Positions 4,067-42,869 of a stretch of 44,049 nt of DNA are shown here, one piece after another. Source of the DNA: Bacteroidota bacterium. GTDB taxonomy: Bacteria; Bacteroidota; Ignavibacteria; UBA10030; UBA8401. The stretch spans positions 1 through 44,049 of the forward strand of contig JAGWND010000003.1 in assembly GCA_028873075.1 (NCBI GenBank), written 5' to 3'. A program made the translations under genes and the position numbers. The stretch's first letter is position 1, and each line of letters starts with the position of its first letter. The notes below the pieces were generated by a model. The model saw only the letters and a list, made by a program, of their open reading frames with translations. It had not been told where the DNA came from and searched no databases.

Positions 4067-4124
4067 AGCGAATATCTGAAAGCGTTTTTTGCTGTCTGAC
4101 ATTTCACCATAACCTAAATTTTCA

Positions 4125-11413: not shown

Positions 11414-11548
11414 TGAATTCCATCTCATTCAGGATGTTTCTATTCGGCAAACCTTTAACGCGGTGTGTTGTCCAACGAGTTGAAAAACCCCTTTGGCAGA
11501 CAAGCCAGCCTTCATTTCAAGAAAAAATTTGGAGTAAAGGAGGTTCGT

Positions 11549-11875
11549 ATGAAAAAGCTCATTGGTTTTGTTTTTGCCGCAGTTCTGGTAAGCGGTTGTT
11601 ACACGGAGCTTCAAACATTGAATGAAGAAAGCTCATCTACCCCTCAACCAATAATTGAATATGTGCCCGTACCCATACTCATACCCGTGCCCGTTCCTGC
11701 GCCGCCTCCGCCGCATCCTTATCCTCCTCGACCGACTCCTATTTCGCCGCCAATTATTGTAGCGCCTACTTCACCAGCCCCTCCGCCGCAACCGCCGCGA
11801 GTGCGCACGGGGGGTGCAACGCGAGGCGGGAACAGCCAAACCAGCGCGAGGGAAAGAACGCGTTCTTCGCGGTAA
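11549..11875 (+). CDS. Small proline-rich lipoprotein
   Basis: AAAGGAGG SD; MKKLIGFVFAAVLVSG-C lipobox; Pro-rich middle and Arg-rich tail. Confidence 0.8.
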   Translation: MKKLIGFVFAAVLVSGCYTELQTLNEESSSTPQPIIEYVPVPILIPVPVPAPPPPHPYPPRPTPISPPIIVAPTSPAPPPQPPRVRTGGATRGGNSQTSARERTRSSR

Positions 11876-34876: not shown

Positions 34877-35284
34877 TTAGATGAGAAATTCGCAGTGGAG
34901 CAGGTACAGCGGTAACGCGGAAATATGAGAAATACAATGAACGTTCTGCTCAACAGGGAGGATGCTTATACTCTGATCTACTAGTGCCGGATCTGCTGCA
35001 AGGGAGGGGCTGTCCAAATCTACAATTTGTATTGTGTGCCGGCGTGCAGCGTGCAGCGGAGTGAGAGATAGCTTCAGCTGAATAAGTGATTTTGCATTTT
35101 GAAGCTCCTCGCTGTTTATCGCCGCGTTGCCCGATTCCTCTGAAATGCCGACTTCCTCGGGGTGGCTTACACTGGTTCCCGGCAAAACATCGTCGAGATT
35201 TGCGAAATCAGCGAAGAACGTGGCGATAAAGAACCACGTTACCAGTGTCAACAAATTCGATTTTTTAAAGCAGAGGGTCATCAT
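34877..35284 (-). CDS. Small leader-like membrane/exported protein heading the czcBAC-type operon
   Basis: 135-aa ORF with N-terminal hydrophobic helix, scattered His, and C-terminus HCISHISALPLYLLHCEFLI; strong promoter immediately upstream. Confidence 0.65.
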   Translation of the reverse strand: MMTLCFKKSNLLTLVTWFFIATFFADFANLDDVLPGTSVSHPEEVGISEESGNAAINSEELQNAKSLIQLKLSLTPLHAARRHTIQIVDLDSPSLAADPALVDQSISILPVEQNVHCISHISALPLYLLHCEFLI

Positions 35285-35402: not shown

Positions 35403-36902
35403 CTATTGCACAACAAACATTTTCTTTTCCCTGTCCCACAGTAAACGCGCACGATTTTTTCCCCACCACGTTTGGACTTTTGCAACATCCTTCACAGAAA
35501 ATGAAATTGGAATATGGCTTTGCAGATGATCGTGTGCGTCATCGGCGAAAATTCCGCCGTCCTGAATAAGGCGAATCATCGCCGGAATTGCGTCGGCATC
35601 TCCCAGCTCAAGTGCGGTTTCCAAAAACTGGATTTGCATCTCGGGGTCGTCCTCCGACTTCGACGCCTCGACAAGTTTTTTCGCGGAAACACCGTCGCCG
35701 AATGTCTTCACTGCAACAAGCACGCTTTGTTGAACGTCGTCTGATTTGTCGTTGAGAAGCGGAACGATCTGAGCTTCCGCTGAAGCGACGCGCGATTTCG
35801 TTAACAGGTCCACTGCGGCTTTACGCACTTCGGAATCTTCATCGTGAAGAGCTTTTGTAACAAGCGGAATCCATTCTTGTTGCTGTGCGGGAAACGAAGC
35901 AAGCATGTGAATACCCGATTGTCTTTCTGTGCTCGCTTGACTCTGAAGCAAATGCAATGCGTGTTCGAGAGGATCTTCTGCAGGTTTGCGGAAGAAAAAA
36001 ACACCCGCAATAAAAATTGCAACGACAGCAGCAGCCGACGCGAGATTTCTAACTGCAATAGAAACACGCTCCGCCGTTTTGATGTAGCGGTACATTCCGC
36101 TTATCAGTAAACCGGCTGCGAGCAAAACAACAACCAAGGGGCTTGTCGGAAGTCCGGTGTTCCACGAAAGCTTCACGCCGATGAAGCTGATGATCGCACT
36201 TCCGATCCAGCCGATTGCGAGCCGCGTGCTGAGTTTATCGGAAAGCATCATTGCTCCGACGGACGGAATGACGAGGTAGCTGAAGACGAGAAACACCCCC
36301 GCAATTGCCACTGAACTTGTGATGACGAATCCGAACGACATATAAAAGAGAAAATCCCATAAGCGGACATTGATGCCGCCCGCTTCCGCTCTTGCAGGAT
36401 CGAACGAGATTGCCATGAACTTTTTCCGGAAGATGAAATGGAACAACCCGACAATCGAATAAATGATTGCTGTTTTGATAACGACGTGGCCCTGTACCCA
36501 GAGCAGATCGCCTTTAATGATGTGATCGAGTTCCTGCGGACCGAGCGCGCTTTTTGAAAGGATCAGAATTGTTGCCGCGAACGTTACGGCATAGACAATG
36601 CCAATGATCGCTTCGTGCGGTACTTTTTCGCTCTTCATGCGTGTGGCGGAAAAGATGAACGCGCCGAAAATCGTGAATGCAAGCGAGTAAAGATACAATG
36701 CTGTAATATCCGTGCCAACTTCGTAACCGAGCAGCACGCCGATGACTGTTCCTAATGCGGCAATTTGCGCCAACGCAAGATCAACGAAAATGACTTTTCG
36801 TGCGACAACGTGAACACCTAAATAGACATGAATGCCGGTGAGCACGAGGCACGCCAGCAGCGGCCAGATCATTGTTGAGGGCAAATAGAAAAGTTGTTCC
36901 AT
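35403..36902 (-). CDS. ZnuB/MntB-type metal ABC permease fused to C-terminal HEAT-like repeats
   Basis: FVDLALAQIAALG, EAIIGIVY, SFDPARAEAGG, AGVFLVFSYLVIP; then LHDEDSEVRKAAVDLL and LLNDKSDDVQQ. Confidence 0.88.
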   Translation of the reverse strand: MEQLFYLPSTMIWPLLACLVLTGIHVYLGVHVVARKVIFVDLALAQIAALGTVIGVLLGYEVGTDITALYLYSLAFTIFGAFIFSATRMKSEKVPHEAIIGIVYAVTFAATILILSKSALGPQELDHIIKGDLLWVQGHVVIKTAIIYSIVGLFHFIFRKKFMAISFDPARAEAGGINVRLWDFLFYMSFGFVITSSVAIAGVFLVFSYLVIPSVGAMMLSDKLSTRLAIGWIGSAIISFIGVKLSWNTGLPTSPLVVVLLAAGLLISGMYRYIKTAERVSIAVRNLASAAAVVAIFIAGVFFFRKPAEDPLEHALHLLQSQASTERQSGIHMLASFPAQQQEWIPLVTKALHDEDSEVRKAAVDLLTKSRVASAEAQIVPLLNDKSDDVQQSVLVAVKTFGDGVSAKKLVEASKSEDDPEMQIQFLETALELGDADAIPAMIRLIQDGGIFADDAHDHLQSHIPISFSVKDVAKVQTWWGKNRARLLWDREKKMFVVQ

Positions 36903-39828: not shown

Positions 39829-40188
39829 TTAGGCAGTCACGAAAGGAGGGCCGCGATGGAAATACGGCGATAAAACTTCAAAGGAAACTGCAGGAACAAA
39901 AGTGATATAGGGAAGGTAAAATGCTTTCTCTTCAGGCTGAACTGTGAACACGGCCGTCGGCATGAATGCTCTGCCGAAAATCCCTGAGCATACGGCACAT
40001 GTTTCGGTATGCGAGAGGTCAATATGGTGACAATGAGCAGCATCCGCGTGTGTTGAGACAGTCTCATATCCCGTGCCTATAACAAATATTGCTTCATAGT
40101 CGCGGTGAATGGGCACAAGAATAACCATACCCACGACGTAAAACGCGAGCACCCACGACGAAAGCTTTTTATTGATACGGGAAATCAT
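39829..40188 (-). CDS. DUF2946/CruR-like leader protein (TM, His cluster, CxxC, C-terminal RGPP)
   Basis: 119 aa from MISRINKK; hydrophobic helix ending in H; THADAAHCHHIDLSHTETCAVC; ends YFHRGPPFVTA; 72 bp upstream of the porin ATG. Confidence 0.8.
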   Translation of the reverse strand: MISRINKKLSSWVLAFYVVGMVILVPIHRDYEAIFVIGTGYETVSTHADAAHCHHIDLSHTETCAVCSGIFGRAFMPTAVFTVQPEEKAFYLPYITFVPAVSFEVLSPYFHRGPPFVTA

Positions 40189-40307
40189 TGATGCATAAAA
40201 GATACAACATTCTAAACCAAATACAAGGAAAAAGGTTCCGCTTTGCGACATGATTTTTTATTGCACGAAGAAACCTTCAAAGTAAAAAGAAGGTTATATC
40301 ATCAGGC

Positions 40308-40730
40308 ATGAATGTTATTGCTAAATACTTCGGTGTCGGGCTGGCGGTTGTGCTGTTATCAGCAAACGGATTTTTTACAGCCTTCGCTCCGGACTTGCGC
40401 CATCACAACAGTGTAAAGAAGGCTTCAATGCAGATGTGCAGTTGCTATTCCGGCGATGAGGCAATGACGTGTTCATGCTGTTGCGCGAAGCATCGCTCAC
40501 ATACTGCAGCGTGCACTTCGTGTGAATTTTCTTCTGCGCCATGCGCAAATCCTATTGCCGCCGTTTCACCGAATGTTCTTGATCCTGCAGTTCAAACGCA
40601 ATCGAAAGAGCAAGACATTCTGCTTGGTACGAGATCGGAAAAATTTCCGGTGCTCGCTATATTGCTTCTTTCACGGACACAAGACCCGCTTTTCCATCCC
40701 CCGCAATCCTTTTCACACATCTTTTCATAA
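40308..40730 (+). CDS. Cys-rich leader-like protein with C-terminal FHPP, upstream of a TonB-dependent receptor
   Basis: N-terminal hydrophobic segment; 9 Cys in CSC...CSCCC...CTSC...C; ends DPLFHPPQSFSHIFS. Confidence 0.75.
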   Translation: MNVIAKYFGVGLAVVLLSANGFFTAFAPDLRHHNSVKKASMQMCSCYSGDEAMTCSCCCAKHRSHTAACTSCEFSSAPCANPIAAVSPNVLDPAVQTQSKEQDILLGTRSEKFPVLAILLLSRTQDPLFHPPQSFSHIFS

Positions 40731-40759
40731 TACAACTGCTCAACAAAAAATCTGAAGGC

Positions 40760-40792
40760 AATGTCTGACAGCGGTTGTTACTGTCTGACATT
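40760..40792 (+). promoter_or_regulatory. Hairpin or tandem TGTCTGACA palindromes between the leader and the TonB-dependent receptor
   Basis: AATGTC-T-GACAG-CGGTTGTTA-CTGTC-T-GACATT; TGTCTGACA at 40762 and 40782. Confidence 0.55.
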
Positions 40793-40898
40793 CAGCGAAA
40801 ATGAAATAAAGATATCAGCGGCTCGAAAACGCCGTCAGGTATCATTACGTTGAGCAATGATAAATTTTTCTTTGCGGTACTTAACGAAAGAAATCTCT

Positions 40899-42869
40899 AT
40901 GCGTTGGTATGTTATCAGTGCGCTGGTGTGTTTCCTTTTTTCAACGGCGTGGTCGGAAGATTCGCCGCCGGATACATCAGCCAAAGTTGTTCAGCTCCCA
41001 GAGGTAACGATTACTTCCGCTCCTGTCGCTCGCGAATTGCCGGTGAGTTCGGTAGTCGTTTCTCCGGTGGCGATTCAAAGAACCGTTGCGACAGATTCGT
41101 GGGATCTTCTTCGTCAAACTACGGGAATTGAAGTTCATGAACAGGGACAAGGACCCGGCTTCGCATCGGATGCATCCATCCGCGGCTTCAGCTCTGATCA
41201 CTCGACCGACCTCGCGCTTTGGATTGACGGAGTGCCGGTGAACGAGCCGATTAACGGACACGCGGAAGGATACAATGATTTCAGCCTTCTGATGCCGGAA
41301 GCGATCCACTCGCTCAATCTCATCAAAGGACCGACCAGCGCGCTGTACGGCAATTTTTCTATGGCAGGCGTGGTAAATGTTCGGACGCTTGAACGCATGG
41401 ACGGAACGGACATTCGTGTTTCCGGCGGCACGTTCGGCAAGCTGGAAGGATCTGCATTGAGCGGTTTTGATAACGGTAGCAGCAGCGGAGTATTCGGCAT
41501 TCGCGGCATTCAGAATCAGGGTTGGCGGCCGAACAGCCAGTACGATCTTGAACAAGCACATGCTCGGTATTTGCAGAATGTATTTTCCGATGCAACGATT
41601 GATGCCGGGGTGGAATTGTACTCTGCCAATTGGCATTCTCCCGGCTCGCTTACTGCGGCACAGTTCGCTCAACGCCAGTATAATGTTGTCGCGAACTCAA
41701 CTGACGGCGGATACAAACGCCGCGCACAGGAACGAGTGAGTTTGAGATTTTCTCCCGACTCCATCATGTTCTGGCGGACGACTATTTTTGCTACACAGGG
41801 GCGCTGGCAGCTTTTTCTCACAACGCCGCCGGAAGGTGGATTGACAGAAGGCTCCGGAAATCAAACGGAAGAAGAGGACAAGCGTTACGGTCTTGGCGGA
41901 ACAAGCGCGTTGACATGGCAGTTTCCGCAGAGTGAAATTACTGTCGGTGTAGAAGGAAAGCTCGATCATTCGAATTACGAGAACTGGTTTACAACCAATC
42001 GGGAAAGAGATTCAGCGCAGATACTCGTTTCGGCACGGCAGAGTGCCGGAGCGTTCTTTTTTCAATCGGAAGAAAATGTCGGCGATGCAAAGTTCACTCT
42101 CGGCGGACGTTATGATATTCTCAGTGTAGAATCTGTACCGGAAGGTGGCGGAACGTTGAATAATGCCAAGGGAATTTTTTCTCCGAAGCTCGGCGTAATG
42201 TATTCCTTTCCCGAAAACTTTTCCGTCTATGCAAACATCTCGCGCGGATTTCGCTCAACAGATGGTACAATAGAAGATCCATCGCTGCCGTTCATCACCG
42301 CATGGGCATACGAGACAGGAACAAAATTCGATGCAGATGTTGCCAGCGGCAGTGTTGCGCTCTTTCGGATGAATGTGAGCAACGAACAGACATTCGACCC
42401 TGTTACGCTCACTTCAACAAACGGGGGAAAAAGCCGCAGGCAAGGAGTGGAAGTGTCGGCGATGATTCGCTTTACAAATCAGGTTCGTTTCATCACTGAT
42501 GTAACGTTCAACGATGCACGTTATGAAAATTTAATTACGGAAGGTGGGGACACGCTTTCCGGTGCACGCGTGTACAACACGGCAAAATGTGTCGGCGATG
42601 CCGCGCTCGACGTTGTTCCGAACGCTCAGTGGCAGTTCCGTCTCAATTCGGATATTGTCGGTCCCTATAGTCCGTTTGATGAACCGGGAGTAGTGTTGCC
42701 GCCGTACGTTATTTTTTCGATGACAATCGGTACACATATCGGCGATGCATTTCTTCAGTTGGGAATCAAGAATCTTGCGGACAAAGCGTACCCCGAATTG
42801 CGTGCAGGCGGATTTGTCAATCCCGGTCAACCGCGCACGTTGTACGGAACAGCGTCGTATTCGTTTTAG
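40899..42869 (+). CDS. TonB-dependent outer-membrane receptor
   Basis: Signal peptide; TonB-box-like LPEVTIT; plug motifs IRGF, IDGVPVN, IKGP.SALYG...AGVVN; C-terminal NL.DK.Y...PG.PRT....SYSF. Confidence 0.95.
   Translation: MRWYVISALVCFLFSTAWSEDSPPDTSAKVVQLPEVTITSAPVARELPVSSVVVSPVAIQRTVATDSWDLLRQTTGIEVHEQGQGPGFASDASIRGFSSDHSTDLALWIDGVPVNEPINGHAEGYNDFSLLMPEAIHSLNLIKGPTSALYGNFSMAGVVNVRTLERMDGTDIRVSGGTFGKLEGSALSGFDNGSSSGVFGIRGIQNQGWRPNSQYDLEQAHARYLQNVFSDATIDAGVELYSANWHSPGSLTAAQFAQRQYNVVANSTDGGYKRRAQERVSLRFSPDSIMFWRTTIFATQGRWQLFLTTPPEGGLTEGSGNQTEEEDKRYGLGGTSALTWQFPQSEITVGVEGKLDHSNYENWFTTNRERDSAQILVSARQSAGAFFFQSEENVGDAKFTLGGRYDILSVESVPEGGGTLNNAKGIFSPKLGVMYSFPENFSVYANISRGFRSTDGTIEDPSLPFITAWAYETGTKFDADVASGSVALFRMNVSNEQTFDPVTLTSTNGGKSRRQGVEVSAMIRFTNQVRFITDVTFNDARYENLITEGGDTLSGARVYNTAKCVGDAALDVVPNAQWQFRLNSDIVGPYSPFDEPGVVLPPYVIFSMTIGTHIGDAFLQLGIKNLADKAYPELRAGGFVNPGQPRTLYGTASYSF

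Follow-up and report, generated by a model that had tools for sequence, protein, structure and literature searches.

A conserved Cys-rich leader ending in H-P-P-Q ahead of a TonB-dependent receptor gene in Bacteroidota: a candidate metal-sensing arrest peptide

Background

Metal-sensing arrest leaders are known from one protein family, DUF2946, with CruR and CutF as its examples; the arrest cores known so far depend on an Arg residue. Here, we analyzed a stretch of 44,049 nucleotides from the genome of a Bacteroidota bacterium (GenBank assembly GCA_028873075.1, contig JAGWND010000003.1, positions 1 to 44,049 of the forward strand), hereafter the window. It contains a 140-aa open reading frame (ORF) with a Cys cluster and an H-P-P-Q motif close to its C-terminus, followed by the gene of a TonB-dependent receptor. 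We compare this leader ORF and its relatives, the HPPQ family, with the closest described systems. Positions are those of the window, and features lie on its + strand unless another strand is given.

CruR (Bp2923) from Bordetella pertussis is a DUF2946 protein with an export signal, a CXXC motif, a spacing of 45 residues, and a RAPP motif three residues from its end. The spacing between CXXC and RAPP is conserved within 1-2 residues, and five added residues impair control. The gene is followed by a 162-nt spacer and then by a TonB-dependent transporter gene. Copper sensed by the nascent chain lifts the arrest at RAPP, and Rho then terminates transcription at a region with more C than G (C>G), to which the Rho utilization (rut) site was mapped; the protein itself is described as poorly structured (PMC9426467). 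Arrest at RAPP was later demonstrated in vitro (PMC12992588).

CutF from Rhodobacter capsulatus, also a DUF2946 protein, carries CxxxC and PPP. As reported, copper-induced stalling opens a stem-loop that hides the ribosome-binding site (RBS) of the following gene, and the system needs EF-P and switches on a detoxifying oxidase (PMC9973294; bioRxiv 10.1101/2025.02.05.636593). CzcI-type proteins, encoded upstream of czcCBA, are described as CutF-like but without the proline motif (PMC9973294).

Regarding the motif itself, no residue could replace the Arg of the RAPP-type motif in ApcA, ApdA, and ApdP (PMC12992588). HAPP and HGPP are among the listed arrest motifs, ApdA and ApdP partly tolerate a change from Ala to Pro, and ApcA-type upstream ORFs (uORFs) include RAPQ (PMC10987492, PMC12992588). 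The main text of these two papers does not contain the string 'HPP'. The HPPQ leader family is not described in the literature on DUF2946, TonB-linked arrest peptides, or HPP stalling, with the limit that the supplementary tables of PMC9426467, PMC9973294, and PMC12992588 could list members. For the literature term 'HPPQ', the matches listed showed nutrition-index or clinical usage and not this family.

Our analysis leads us to read the leader ORF as a cis-acting, metal-sensing arrest-peptide leader for the TonB-dependent receptor, with a confidence that is only a little above even. Within this reading, we infer the arrest, the metal binding, the direction of control, and the co-transcription with the receptor.

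The leader ORF and its family

The leader ORF (40308..40730, ATG start, 140 aa, ending in ...LFHPPQSFSHIFS) is a real, conserved, and rare gene, well beyond chance. It was delimited from the ORF listing, its homologues, and their alignments, and neither Pfam nor NCBIfam contains a family that it matched. Among 5.8 billion proteins, a word-indexed search retrieved three relatives with 40-58% identity. A HMMER search with the family profile against 1.84 billion cluster representatives gave 10 proteins at E <=0.001 and nothing beyond the HPPQ family itself.

At the genome level, a whole-genome search found the leader in 5 of 41 related genomes. In a sample of 401 genomes of the class, four contained solid matches, and the matches in two more were marginal and interrupted by internal stops. 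Scanning species-representative genomes brought in four more leader loci, whose metagenome-assembled genome (MAG) records are labelled Bacteroidetes, Bacteroidota, or Chitinophagaceae; two of the eight loci from that scan (L012 and L013) turned out to be spurious once inspected. Scans of metagenome contigs, using as queries the window ORF and then the family member P0002, found no leader relative. The resulting set holds 17 distinct full-length sequences, with DNA available for nine loci; three leader sequences (P0006, P0007, and P0013) are truncated or frameshifted. Alignment A2 comprises 16 HPPQ proteins, P0009 not being among them, and alignment A3 comprises 12 RGPP/RAPP proteins from the same genome group.

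The C-terminal motif is the most conserved part of the family. HPP is kept in all 17 full-length members and HPPQ in 16 of them, the exception being P0009 with HPPH. The preceding residue is L, F, or Y, and the motif lies 5-10 residues ahead of the stop in every member. In the window, the four codons are CAT CCC CCG CAA (40695..40706), which we propose as a ribosome pause or arrest site on the grounds of family conservation. Synonymous codons vary across the nine loci at His (two codons), the first Pro (four), and Gln (two), which points to selection acting on the peptide. The second Pro is CCG in all nine loci, and CCG is also the majority Pro codon in the window genes (61%). The invariance of Gln in HPPQ would fit a role for the residue in the A-site.

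The first-pass annotation of this region had described a 140-aa ORF with a signal or transmembrane segment, a cluster of nine Cys with His, and FHPP eight codons before the stop. The ORF listing and the residue positions agree with it: FHPP is encoded at 40692..40703 and followed by QSFSHIFS (8 residues) and the stop codon (40728..40730). Its linker of ~45 aa, by contrast, has to be corrected to 50 residues when counted from C79 to His130.

Conservation differs along the protein. Residues 1-27 (40308..40388), a putative export signal or signal-anchor that includes LLSANG and is hydrophobic at about residues 8-27, have a mean pairwise identity of 0.47 in A2, with no gaps and with LLSANG conserved. 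The Cys cluster (residues 44-79, 36 residues, 40437..40544) reaches 0.49. In the window copy, it contains nine Cys (positions 44, 46, 55, 57, 58, 59, 69, 72, and 79) and two His (His62 and His65); five of the Cys are invariant in the family (C44, C46, C57, C72, and C79), forming a CxC, a CC(C) run, and a C-x6-C. The window leader also has a C69-x-x-C72 motif, but C69 varies among the relatives. The family thus has a set of Cys ligands other than the CXXC or CxxxC of DUF2946.

The spacer between the cluster and the motif (residues 80-129, 50 residues, 40545..40694) is fixed in length. Counted from the conserved Cys (C79) to His, it measures exactly 50 residues in each of the 14 proteins examined, and no gap cell occurs from C79 to H130 in the 16 sequences of A2. 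Within the spacer, mean pairwise identity is 0.62 in the SSAPC...SPNVLD block (residues 80-92), falls to 0.23 in the middle (residues 93-120), which is nevertheless gap-free in every sequence, and rises to 0.52 just before the motif (residues 121-129), as expected for a segment contacting the tunnel. Identity is 1.00 at HPPQ (residues 130-133) and 0.35 in the tail (residues 134-140), which is 5-10 residues long in the family and rich in Ser, Phe, Leu, and Pro. In the window, this pyrimidine-rich tail encodes SFSHIFS and the stop codon (40707..40730), and similar tails occur in all relatives.

At the structural level, AlphaFold with the 16-sequence alignment gave no fold for the leader past an N-terminal helix (mean predicted local distance difference test score, pLDDT, of 50.2). 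This helix, at residues 3-19 and within the putative export segment, is the sole part with pLDDT >=70. In the ESM Atlas, the nearest entries are unnamed clusters only (0.95-0.96), with no DUF2946, and the named neighbours DUF6769 and DUF6660 (0.90-0.91) are leads only. A paper that mentions DUF6769 does so on an unrelated subject.

These features have to be weighed against a different reading, namely that the leader is a mature protein: an exported or membrane-anchored, metallothionein-like periplasmic chaperone or buffer that would pass metal to or from the receptor, with HPPQ having a structural or partner-binding role. The export segment, the five invariant Cys, and the conserved SSAPC and SPNVLD blocks would all suit such a protein, and so would a motif that lacks the Arg required in RAPP-type cores. 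The absence of a predicted fold (pLDDT 50.2) suits it less, and a 28-residue spacer middle that varies in sequence but never in length would be odd for a folded or binding domain. Moreover, the sole fully invariant block sits close to the end, with only a variable, pyrimidine-coded tail of 5-10 residues behind it, and this many Cys would need dedicated handling in the oxidising periplasm. Together with the evidence from the neighbouring genes given below, we consider a mature metal binder fairly unlikely.

The receptor and the genomic setting

The TonB-dependent receptor gene (40899..42869) encodes 656 aa from a conserved M-R-W start and contains the plug (PF07715, 2.6e-19) and beta-barrel (PF00593, 2e-32) domains. 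Its start at 40899 is 168 nt past the leader stop, as the first-pass annotation had placed it, and an in-frame ATG is also present at 40857. The substrate of the receptor is not inferable from a PDB sequence search, in which the best matches (YncD, PqqU, CntO, FoxA, FhuA, and FecA) reached only E = 1e-14 to 4e-12.

Leader and receptor go together. The next gene on the same strand encodes an outer-membrane protein in all nine loci, and it is the same receptor in eight of them. The first refuting condition named in the first-pass annotation, a lack of conservation of HPP, does not hold (HPP in 17/17 members). From the side of the receptor, an orthologue (E <=1e-80) is present in 4 of the 41 related genomes and has the leader in front in all four; those of genomes G005, G015, and G022 share 69-70% identity, each with the leader ahead. 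Upstream of the leader, the loci have either a gene in the opposite orientation or 142 nt and more without a gene, so the leader appears to head its unit.

This strict co-occurrence with the receptor is also what a mature metal binder would show, and the metal-handling neighbours found in relatives are compatible with it too. The remaining locus (L004, from a genome of the same genus) speaks for the arrest leader instead: there, the leader precedes a different outer-membrane gene (326 aa, without a Pfam family), which suggests a portable regulatory module.

Regarding those neighbours, the receptor is followed in L006 by a permease-like membrane protein of the DsbD_2 family and by NikR, in L010 by a YHS-domain protein, and in L009 by cation-diffusion efflux genes. 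All of these relate to metals, which is also context in favour of the arrest-leader reading. Nickel permeases are known among DsbD_2 (UreH-like) proteins. The genome of the window yielded no NikR, so the hint at nickel comes from the relatives alone.

The receptor as neighbour raises a further explanation, in which the leader is the precursor of a secreted Cys-rich peptide (a metallophore or a product similar to ribosomally synthesized and post-translationally modified peptides) that the receptor would take back up. The small size, the many Cys, the export segment, and the adjacent TonB-dependent receptor gene would suit this reading. We nonetheless judge it very improbable: no modification, protease, or export genes are conserved nearby in the nine loci, the most conserved part is the C-terminal HPPQ and not a core peptide, and the family is tiny, with 10 matches among 1.84 billion representative proteins.

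On the other strand, the window carries a Znu-type ATP-binding cassette (ABC) system that is headed by a small ORF of its own. This divergent, CruR-like ORF (39829..40188, - strand) has the order CAVC, 44 residues, RGPP, and 4 residues; in our reading it starts at Met22, the alternative start being at 40251. It scores 21.1 bits against PF11162 (DUF2946), below the cut-off of 23.7, and it heads genes for a 451-aa putative outer-membrane protein, ZnuA, and an ABC-3 permease. Relatives are present in 15 of the 41 genomes, with invariant C..C and R.PP in A3. The RGPP and HPPQ ORFs are unrelated and face each other over ~120 bp. We count this canonical CXXC-44-RGPP leader next door as context in favour of reading the HPPQ ORF as an arrest leader.

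The first-pass annotation had assigned both ORFs the same layout. This stands for the order of the parts, since each has an export segment, a Cys cluster, a fixed spacer, and an xPP motif, and fails for ancestry, where no homology is detectable: hhalign of A2 against A3 gave a probability of 14.5% with just the N-terminal 41 columns aligned, and none of 16 HPPQ family members matched PF11162, even at E up to 10.

As a separate observation, an ABC-3 (ZnuB-like) permease (35403..36902, - strand; PF00950, 2.6e-34) is fused to C-terminal HEAT repeats (HEAT_2, 8.7e-18), which is unusual for a metal ABC permease.

The C-rich tract, the proposed mechanism and RNA pairing

A C-rich, G-poor, rut-like tract covers the 3' end of the leader ORF (40657..40754), where the excess of C over G reaches 21 per 60 nt. 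Such stretches are infrequent, with just 0.11% of the 60-nt stretches on the + strand of the window having C-G >=19. In all nine loci, the C>G tract lies across the HPPQ codons, in the last 70-100 nt of the ORF, with for example 24 C vs 5 G per 60 nt. The genome of the window encodes both Rho (713 bits) and EF-P (233 bits).

If the leader acts as we propose, its N-terminal segment would target the nascent chain for export during translation. With the ribosome at H130-P131-P132 and Gln133 next, peptide-bond formation would slow or stop; at that moment, residues 121-133 would lie in the exit tunnel, and the Cys cluster, 50 residues back, would have just emerged. Binding of a thiophilic metal by the cluster (or its folding or oxidation) could then alter the pull on the nascent chain and hence the dwell time of the ribosome. 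A ribosome parked at HPPQ would cover the C-rich 3' end of the ORF, most likely blocking the loading of Rho, and the receptor would be transcribed. Release of the ribosome would lead to termination, following the logic of CruR, in which metal turns uptake off. In relatives, the pyrimidine tract may also pair with the Shine-Dalgarno region of the receptor, and RBS unmasking like that of CutF or SecM could add to the Rho route or replace it.

This last step can also be taken as the whole output. In this sub-variant of the arrest-leader reading, separate from it for the output step only, regulation would be purely translational, as in CutF, SecM, or MifM, and the stall at HPPQ would keep open a helix between the tail and the receptor RBS. 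CutF offers a precedent (PMC9973294; bioRxiv 10.1101/2025.02.05.636593), and the relatives offer evidence. In seven receptor-linked relatives, the predicted duplex between the HPPQ-to-stop segment and the receptor start reaches -13.8 to -21.5 kcal/mol (z = -1.4 to -4.1 vs shuffles), and whole-segment minimum free energy (MFE) folding closes that long-range helix in 8/8 receptor-linked loci. L005 has a different purine block (CGAGAGG) that is matched by a different tail (CCTCTCG). The repeats inserted in some spacers, described below, fall inside the would-be loop.

Synonymous recoding is a stricter comparison, and just three of the seven receptor-linked relatives beat it at p < 0.05 (L005, 0.004; L007, 0.034; L009, 0.026), with codons for Ser, Phe, Leu, and Pro explaining much of the complementarity. 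The compared loci are few and related, hence not independent trials, and the pairing arms are 80-270 nt apart. In the window itself, the ORF 3' end and the receptor start form at best a duplex of -9.3 kcal/mol (z = -0.39 vs 300 shuffles), and a shorter, 34-nt receptor start region gives -7.7 kcal/mol, weaker than the average synonymous recoding (z = +0.90). Thus, pairing of the tail with the receptor start is plausible in the relatives and unsupported in the window. We regard a purely translational output as unlikely. Much of the complementarity amounts to pyrimidine-rich codons meeting a purine-rich site, and the Rho-type route has the better support for the window.

The first-pass annotation had proposed two local pairings in the window and had called them short and weak. 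That caution was justified, as no pairing exceeded the shuffles. The stem TTTCTTT/AAAGAAA (40867..40893), an AU stem over the purine-rich stretch before the receptor start, does appear in MFE folds, but it is neither conserved in relatives nor above chance. CCGCAA (40701..40706) and TTGCGG (40872..40877) are indeed complementary; their pairing is likewise not conserved, and the best duplex does not exceed chance. A local hairpin in the spacers of relatives was set aside as well, its covariation being only modest: 4 of 10 pairs differ in both arms across seven related sequences.

Several points weigh against the arrest-leader reading as a whole. The two pairing values of the window and the small number of relatives that beat recoding, just given, are among them. 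Since the family lacks sequence homology to DUF2946, function is not transferable by family membership, and since Arg is irreplaceable in RAPP-type peptides, H-P-P-Q is no proven arrest core. With EF-P present, a lone PP may cause a brief pause at most. The C>G tract could merely reflect the codons for Pro, Ser, Leu, Phe, His, and Gln. Finally, repeats were inserted between leader and receptor in three lineages, which fits two independent genes equally well.

The leader-receptor spacer and the region upstream

The intergenic spacer of the window (40731..40898) is 168 nt long. Five relatives have spacers of 81-94 nt, two others of 226 and 271 nt, and L004 one of 67 nt. The window spacer folds better than shuffled sequences (z = -2.78), mostly because of an inserted repeat. 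This bipartite element (40760..40843), similar to repetitive extragenic palindromic (REP) sequences, consists of a hairpin TGTCTGACAGCG...GCTGTCTGACA, about 20 nt, and a second hairpin GATGTCAGACGG...CCGTCAGACATC, located here at 40760..40792 and 40811..40843, and a flanking stem (GCTCAAC, 40738..40744; GTTGAGC, 40849..40855) encloses it in its loop. Copies are dispersed in the genome, with 43 forward and 44 reverse matches at <=2 mismatches and none on either strand (0 + 0) for a reversed control. Seven other copies, aligned by eye, have the same two-hairpin layout, and sites include window 4073..4101 and the contig regions C32:8099-9212 and C69:717-1161, some of them in tandem arrays. Without the insert, the spacer would measure ~84 nt, as in relatives, so its 168-nt length is no designed feature. 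The twin TGTCTGACA palindromes of the spacer had been considered as an operator, and we rejected this candidate, as they are part of the dispersed repeat with its 87 strand-matches in the genome.

In two relatives, an element similar to miniature inverted-repeat transposable elements (MITEs), with terminal inverted repeats GAGACTTCTGAAAA...TTTTCAGATGTCTC, lies right after the leader stop (L007:4430..4618 and L008:4433..4577) and stretches the spacer to 271 nt and 226 nt, respectively.

A sigma-70 consensus scan found no + strand promoter or terminator in 40731..40898, other promoter types being outside the reach of that scan. The Bacteroidota-type -7 motif TAnnTTTG had no match in 40189..40898, and in the window it was found 25 times vs 23.8 expected.

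Upstream of the leader, a GGTTATAT block (40292..40299), 8 nt ahead of the leader ATG, is shared with relatives. Either GGTTATAT or GGTTATAG stands 5-8 nt before the leader ATG in eight of the nine loci (window, L004, and L006-L011; not in L005), and the block is common to loci whose leader proteins are just 32-40% identical. In L006 and L010, the sigma-70 scan called TTGCCG-N16-TATAAT (10/12 match), ending 2 nt before the ATG. The block may be a -10-like promoter element, in which case the mRNA would be leaderless or have a very short leader.

We also observed, in g4-type relatives and not in the window, GTTCCCAA(A)C...GTT(T)GGGAAC upstream of the leader, an inverted repeat whose arms are variably spaced. 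It lies at ~20..45 in L009, at ~810..840 in L011, and ~100 nt upstream of the leader in L006, L007, and L010, and it could be the terminator of the preceding gene or an operator.

Other small ORFs in the genome

Small, Cys-rich, exported ORFs are also present ahead of heavy-metal efflux operons of the resistance-nodulation-division (RND) type, which encode OEP, a CusB-like adaptor with HMBD, and an AcrB-family pump. One is C142:13707..14132 (L042:308-733), and a second is probably window 34877..35284 (- strand). The family of the first, found in 15 of the 41 genomes, keeps SSGFT..CTM..CC and a C-terminal ...SSFLI, and the window ORF ends in ...HCEFLI. They may be CzcI-like regulators with a conserved FLI end. 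C142:13707..14132 was also examined as a third xPP leader and ruled out, because PP is not conserved among its relatives.

Another ORF of 142 aa (C292:3921..4349; L043:122-550) is hydrophobic near its N-terminus and carries RSPP only two residues ahead of its stop codon. It lies ~610 nt upstream of a P-type cation ATPase and is a candidate RAPP-like leader.

Finally, the window ORF at 11465..11875 starts like a lipoprotein (...VLVSGCY) and continues with a very proline-rich body (PVPVPAPPPPHPYPPRPTP...), and it gives the strongest C>G tract of the window (11632..11798).

Comparison with known systems

Among the described systems, CruR resembles the HPPQ leader in several features. Both are proteins of ~140 aa in which an N-terminal export signal is followed by a Cys metal motif and, a few residues before the stop, by an xPP motif, and in both the distance from Cys to xPP is conserved (45 residues in CruR vs 50 in the HPPQ family). 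Both genes open their unit and are separated from a TonB-dependent transporter gene by a long spacer (162 nt for cruR, 168 nt in the window); a C>G tract marks the 3' part of both ORFs, and both proteins are described or predicted as poorly structured. On the other hand, the HPPQ family has five invariant Cys in a poly-Cys cluster, whereas CruR has one CXXC, and the motifs are H-P-P-Q and R-A-P-P, respectively. HPPQ members come from MAGs labelled Bacteroidota or Bacteroidetes and CruR from Proteobacteria, and the neighbours of the relatives point to Ni or Co (NikR, DsbD_2) as much as to Cu (YHS).

With CutF, the leader shares an exported nascent chain with Cys, for which metal sensing is known in CutF, and a C-terminal proline motif. 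RBS shielding by RNA pairing is a further likeness, comparable pairing being predicted in HPPQ relatives and unsupported in the window. They differ in their targets and motifs, since CutF controls a detoxifying oxidase and has PPP, whereas the HPPQ leader faces an uptake-type receptor. The motif of the family carries neither the Arg of R-A/G-P-P (CruR) nor the third Pro of PPP (CutF).

RAPP-like peptides (ApdA, ApdP, ApcA, SecM, and the RAPP/RGPP uORFs) resemble the leader in that a small secretory or membrane protein carries the motif near its C-terminus and its gene precedes a functionally linked one. If HPPQ is read as H(-2), P(-1), P in the P-site, and Q in the A-site, it would resemble the (R/Q/H)(A/G)P-X cores. 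However, it lacks Arg and has no Ala or Gly between His and PP, so it departs from the core (R/Q/H)-(A/G)-P-(P/G). CzcI-type proteins are similar as small, Cys-containing, exported ORFs that head metal-transport operons. In the CzcI-type ORFs of this genome, PP is not conserved, whereas it is invariant in the HPPQ family, and they serve as a contrast only.

How these likenesses arose is a further question. Tentatively, and with somewhat less than even confidence, we suggest that the HPPQ family arose independently as a class of nascent-chain metal sensors, convergent with DUF2946, with an Arg-less core, a 50-residue 'molecular ruler', and a ligand that is perhaps not copper (Ni or Co), paired back to back with an RGPP sensor at two uptake routes. 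If so, the combination of export signal, Cys ligands, fixed spacer, and xPP would have been reached twice from unrelated sequences, and the repertoire of arrest motifs would extend to H-P-P-Q. It would also provide a natural system for the distance from the peptidyl transferase centre at which folding or metal binding acts on the ribosome, with the invariance of the 50 residues as a direct prediction. For genome annotation, it would mean that such 'hypothetical proteins' upstream of TonB-dependent receptors are probable regulators rather than cargo.

As far as sequence comparison goes, the HPPQ leader is CruR/CutF-like in its architecture and setting, with an unrelated sequence, a different ligand set, and a different proline motif.

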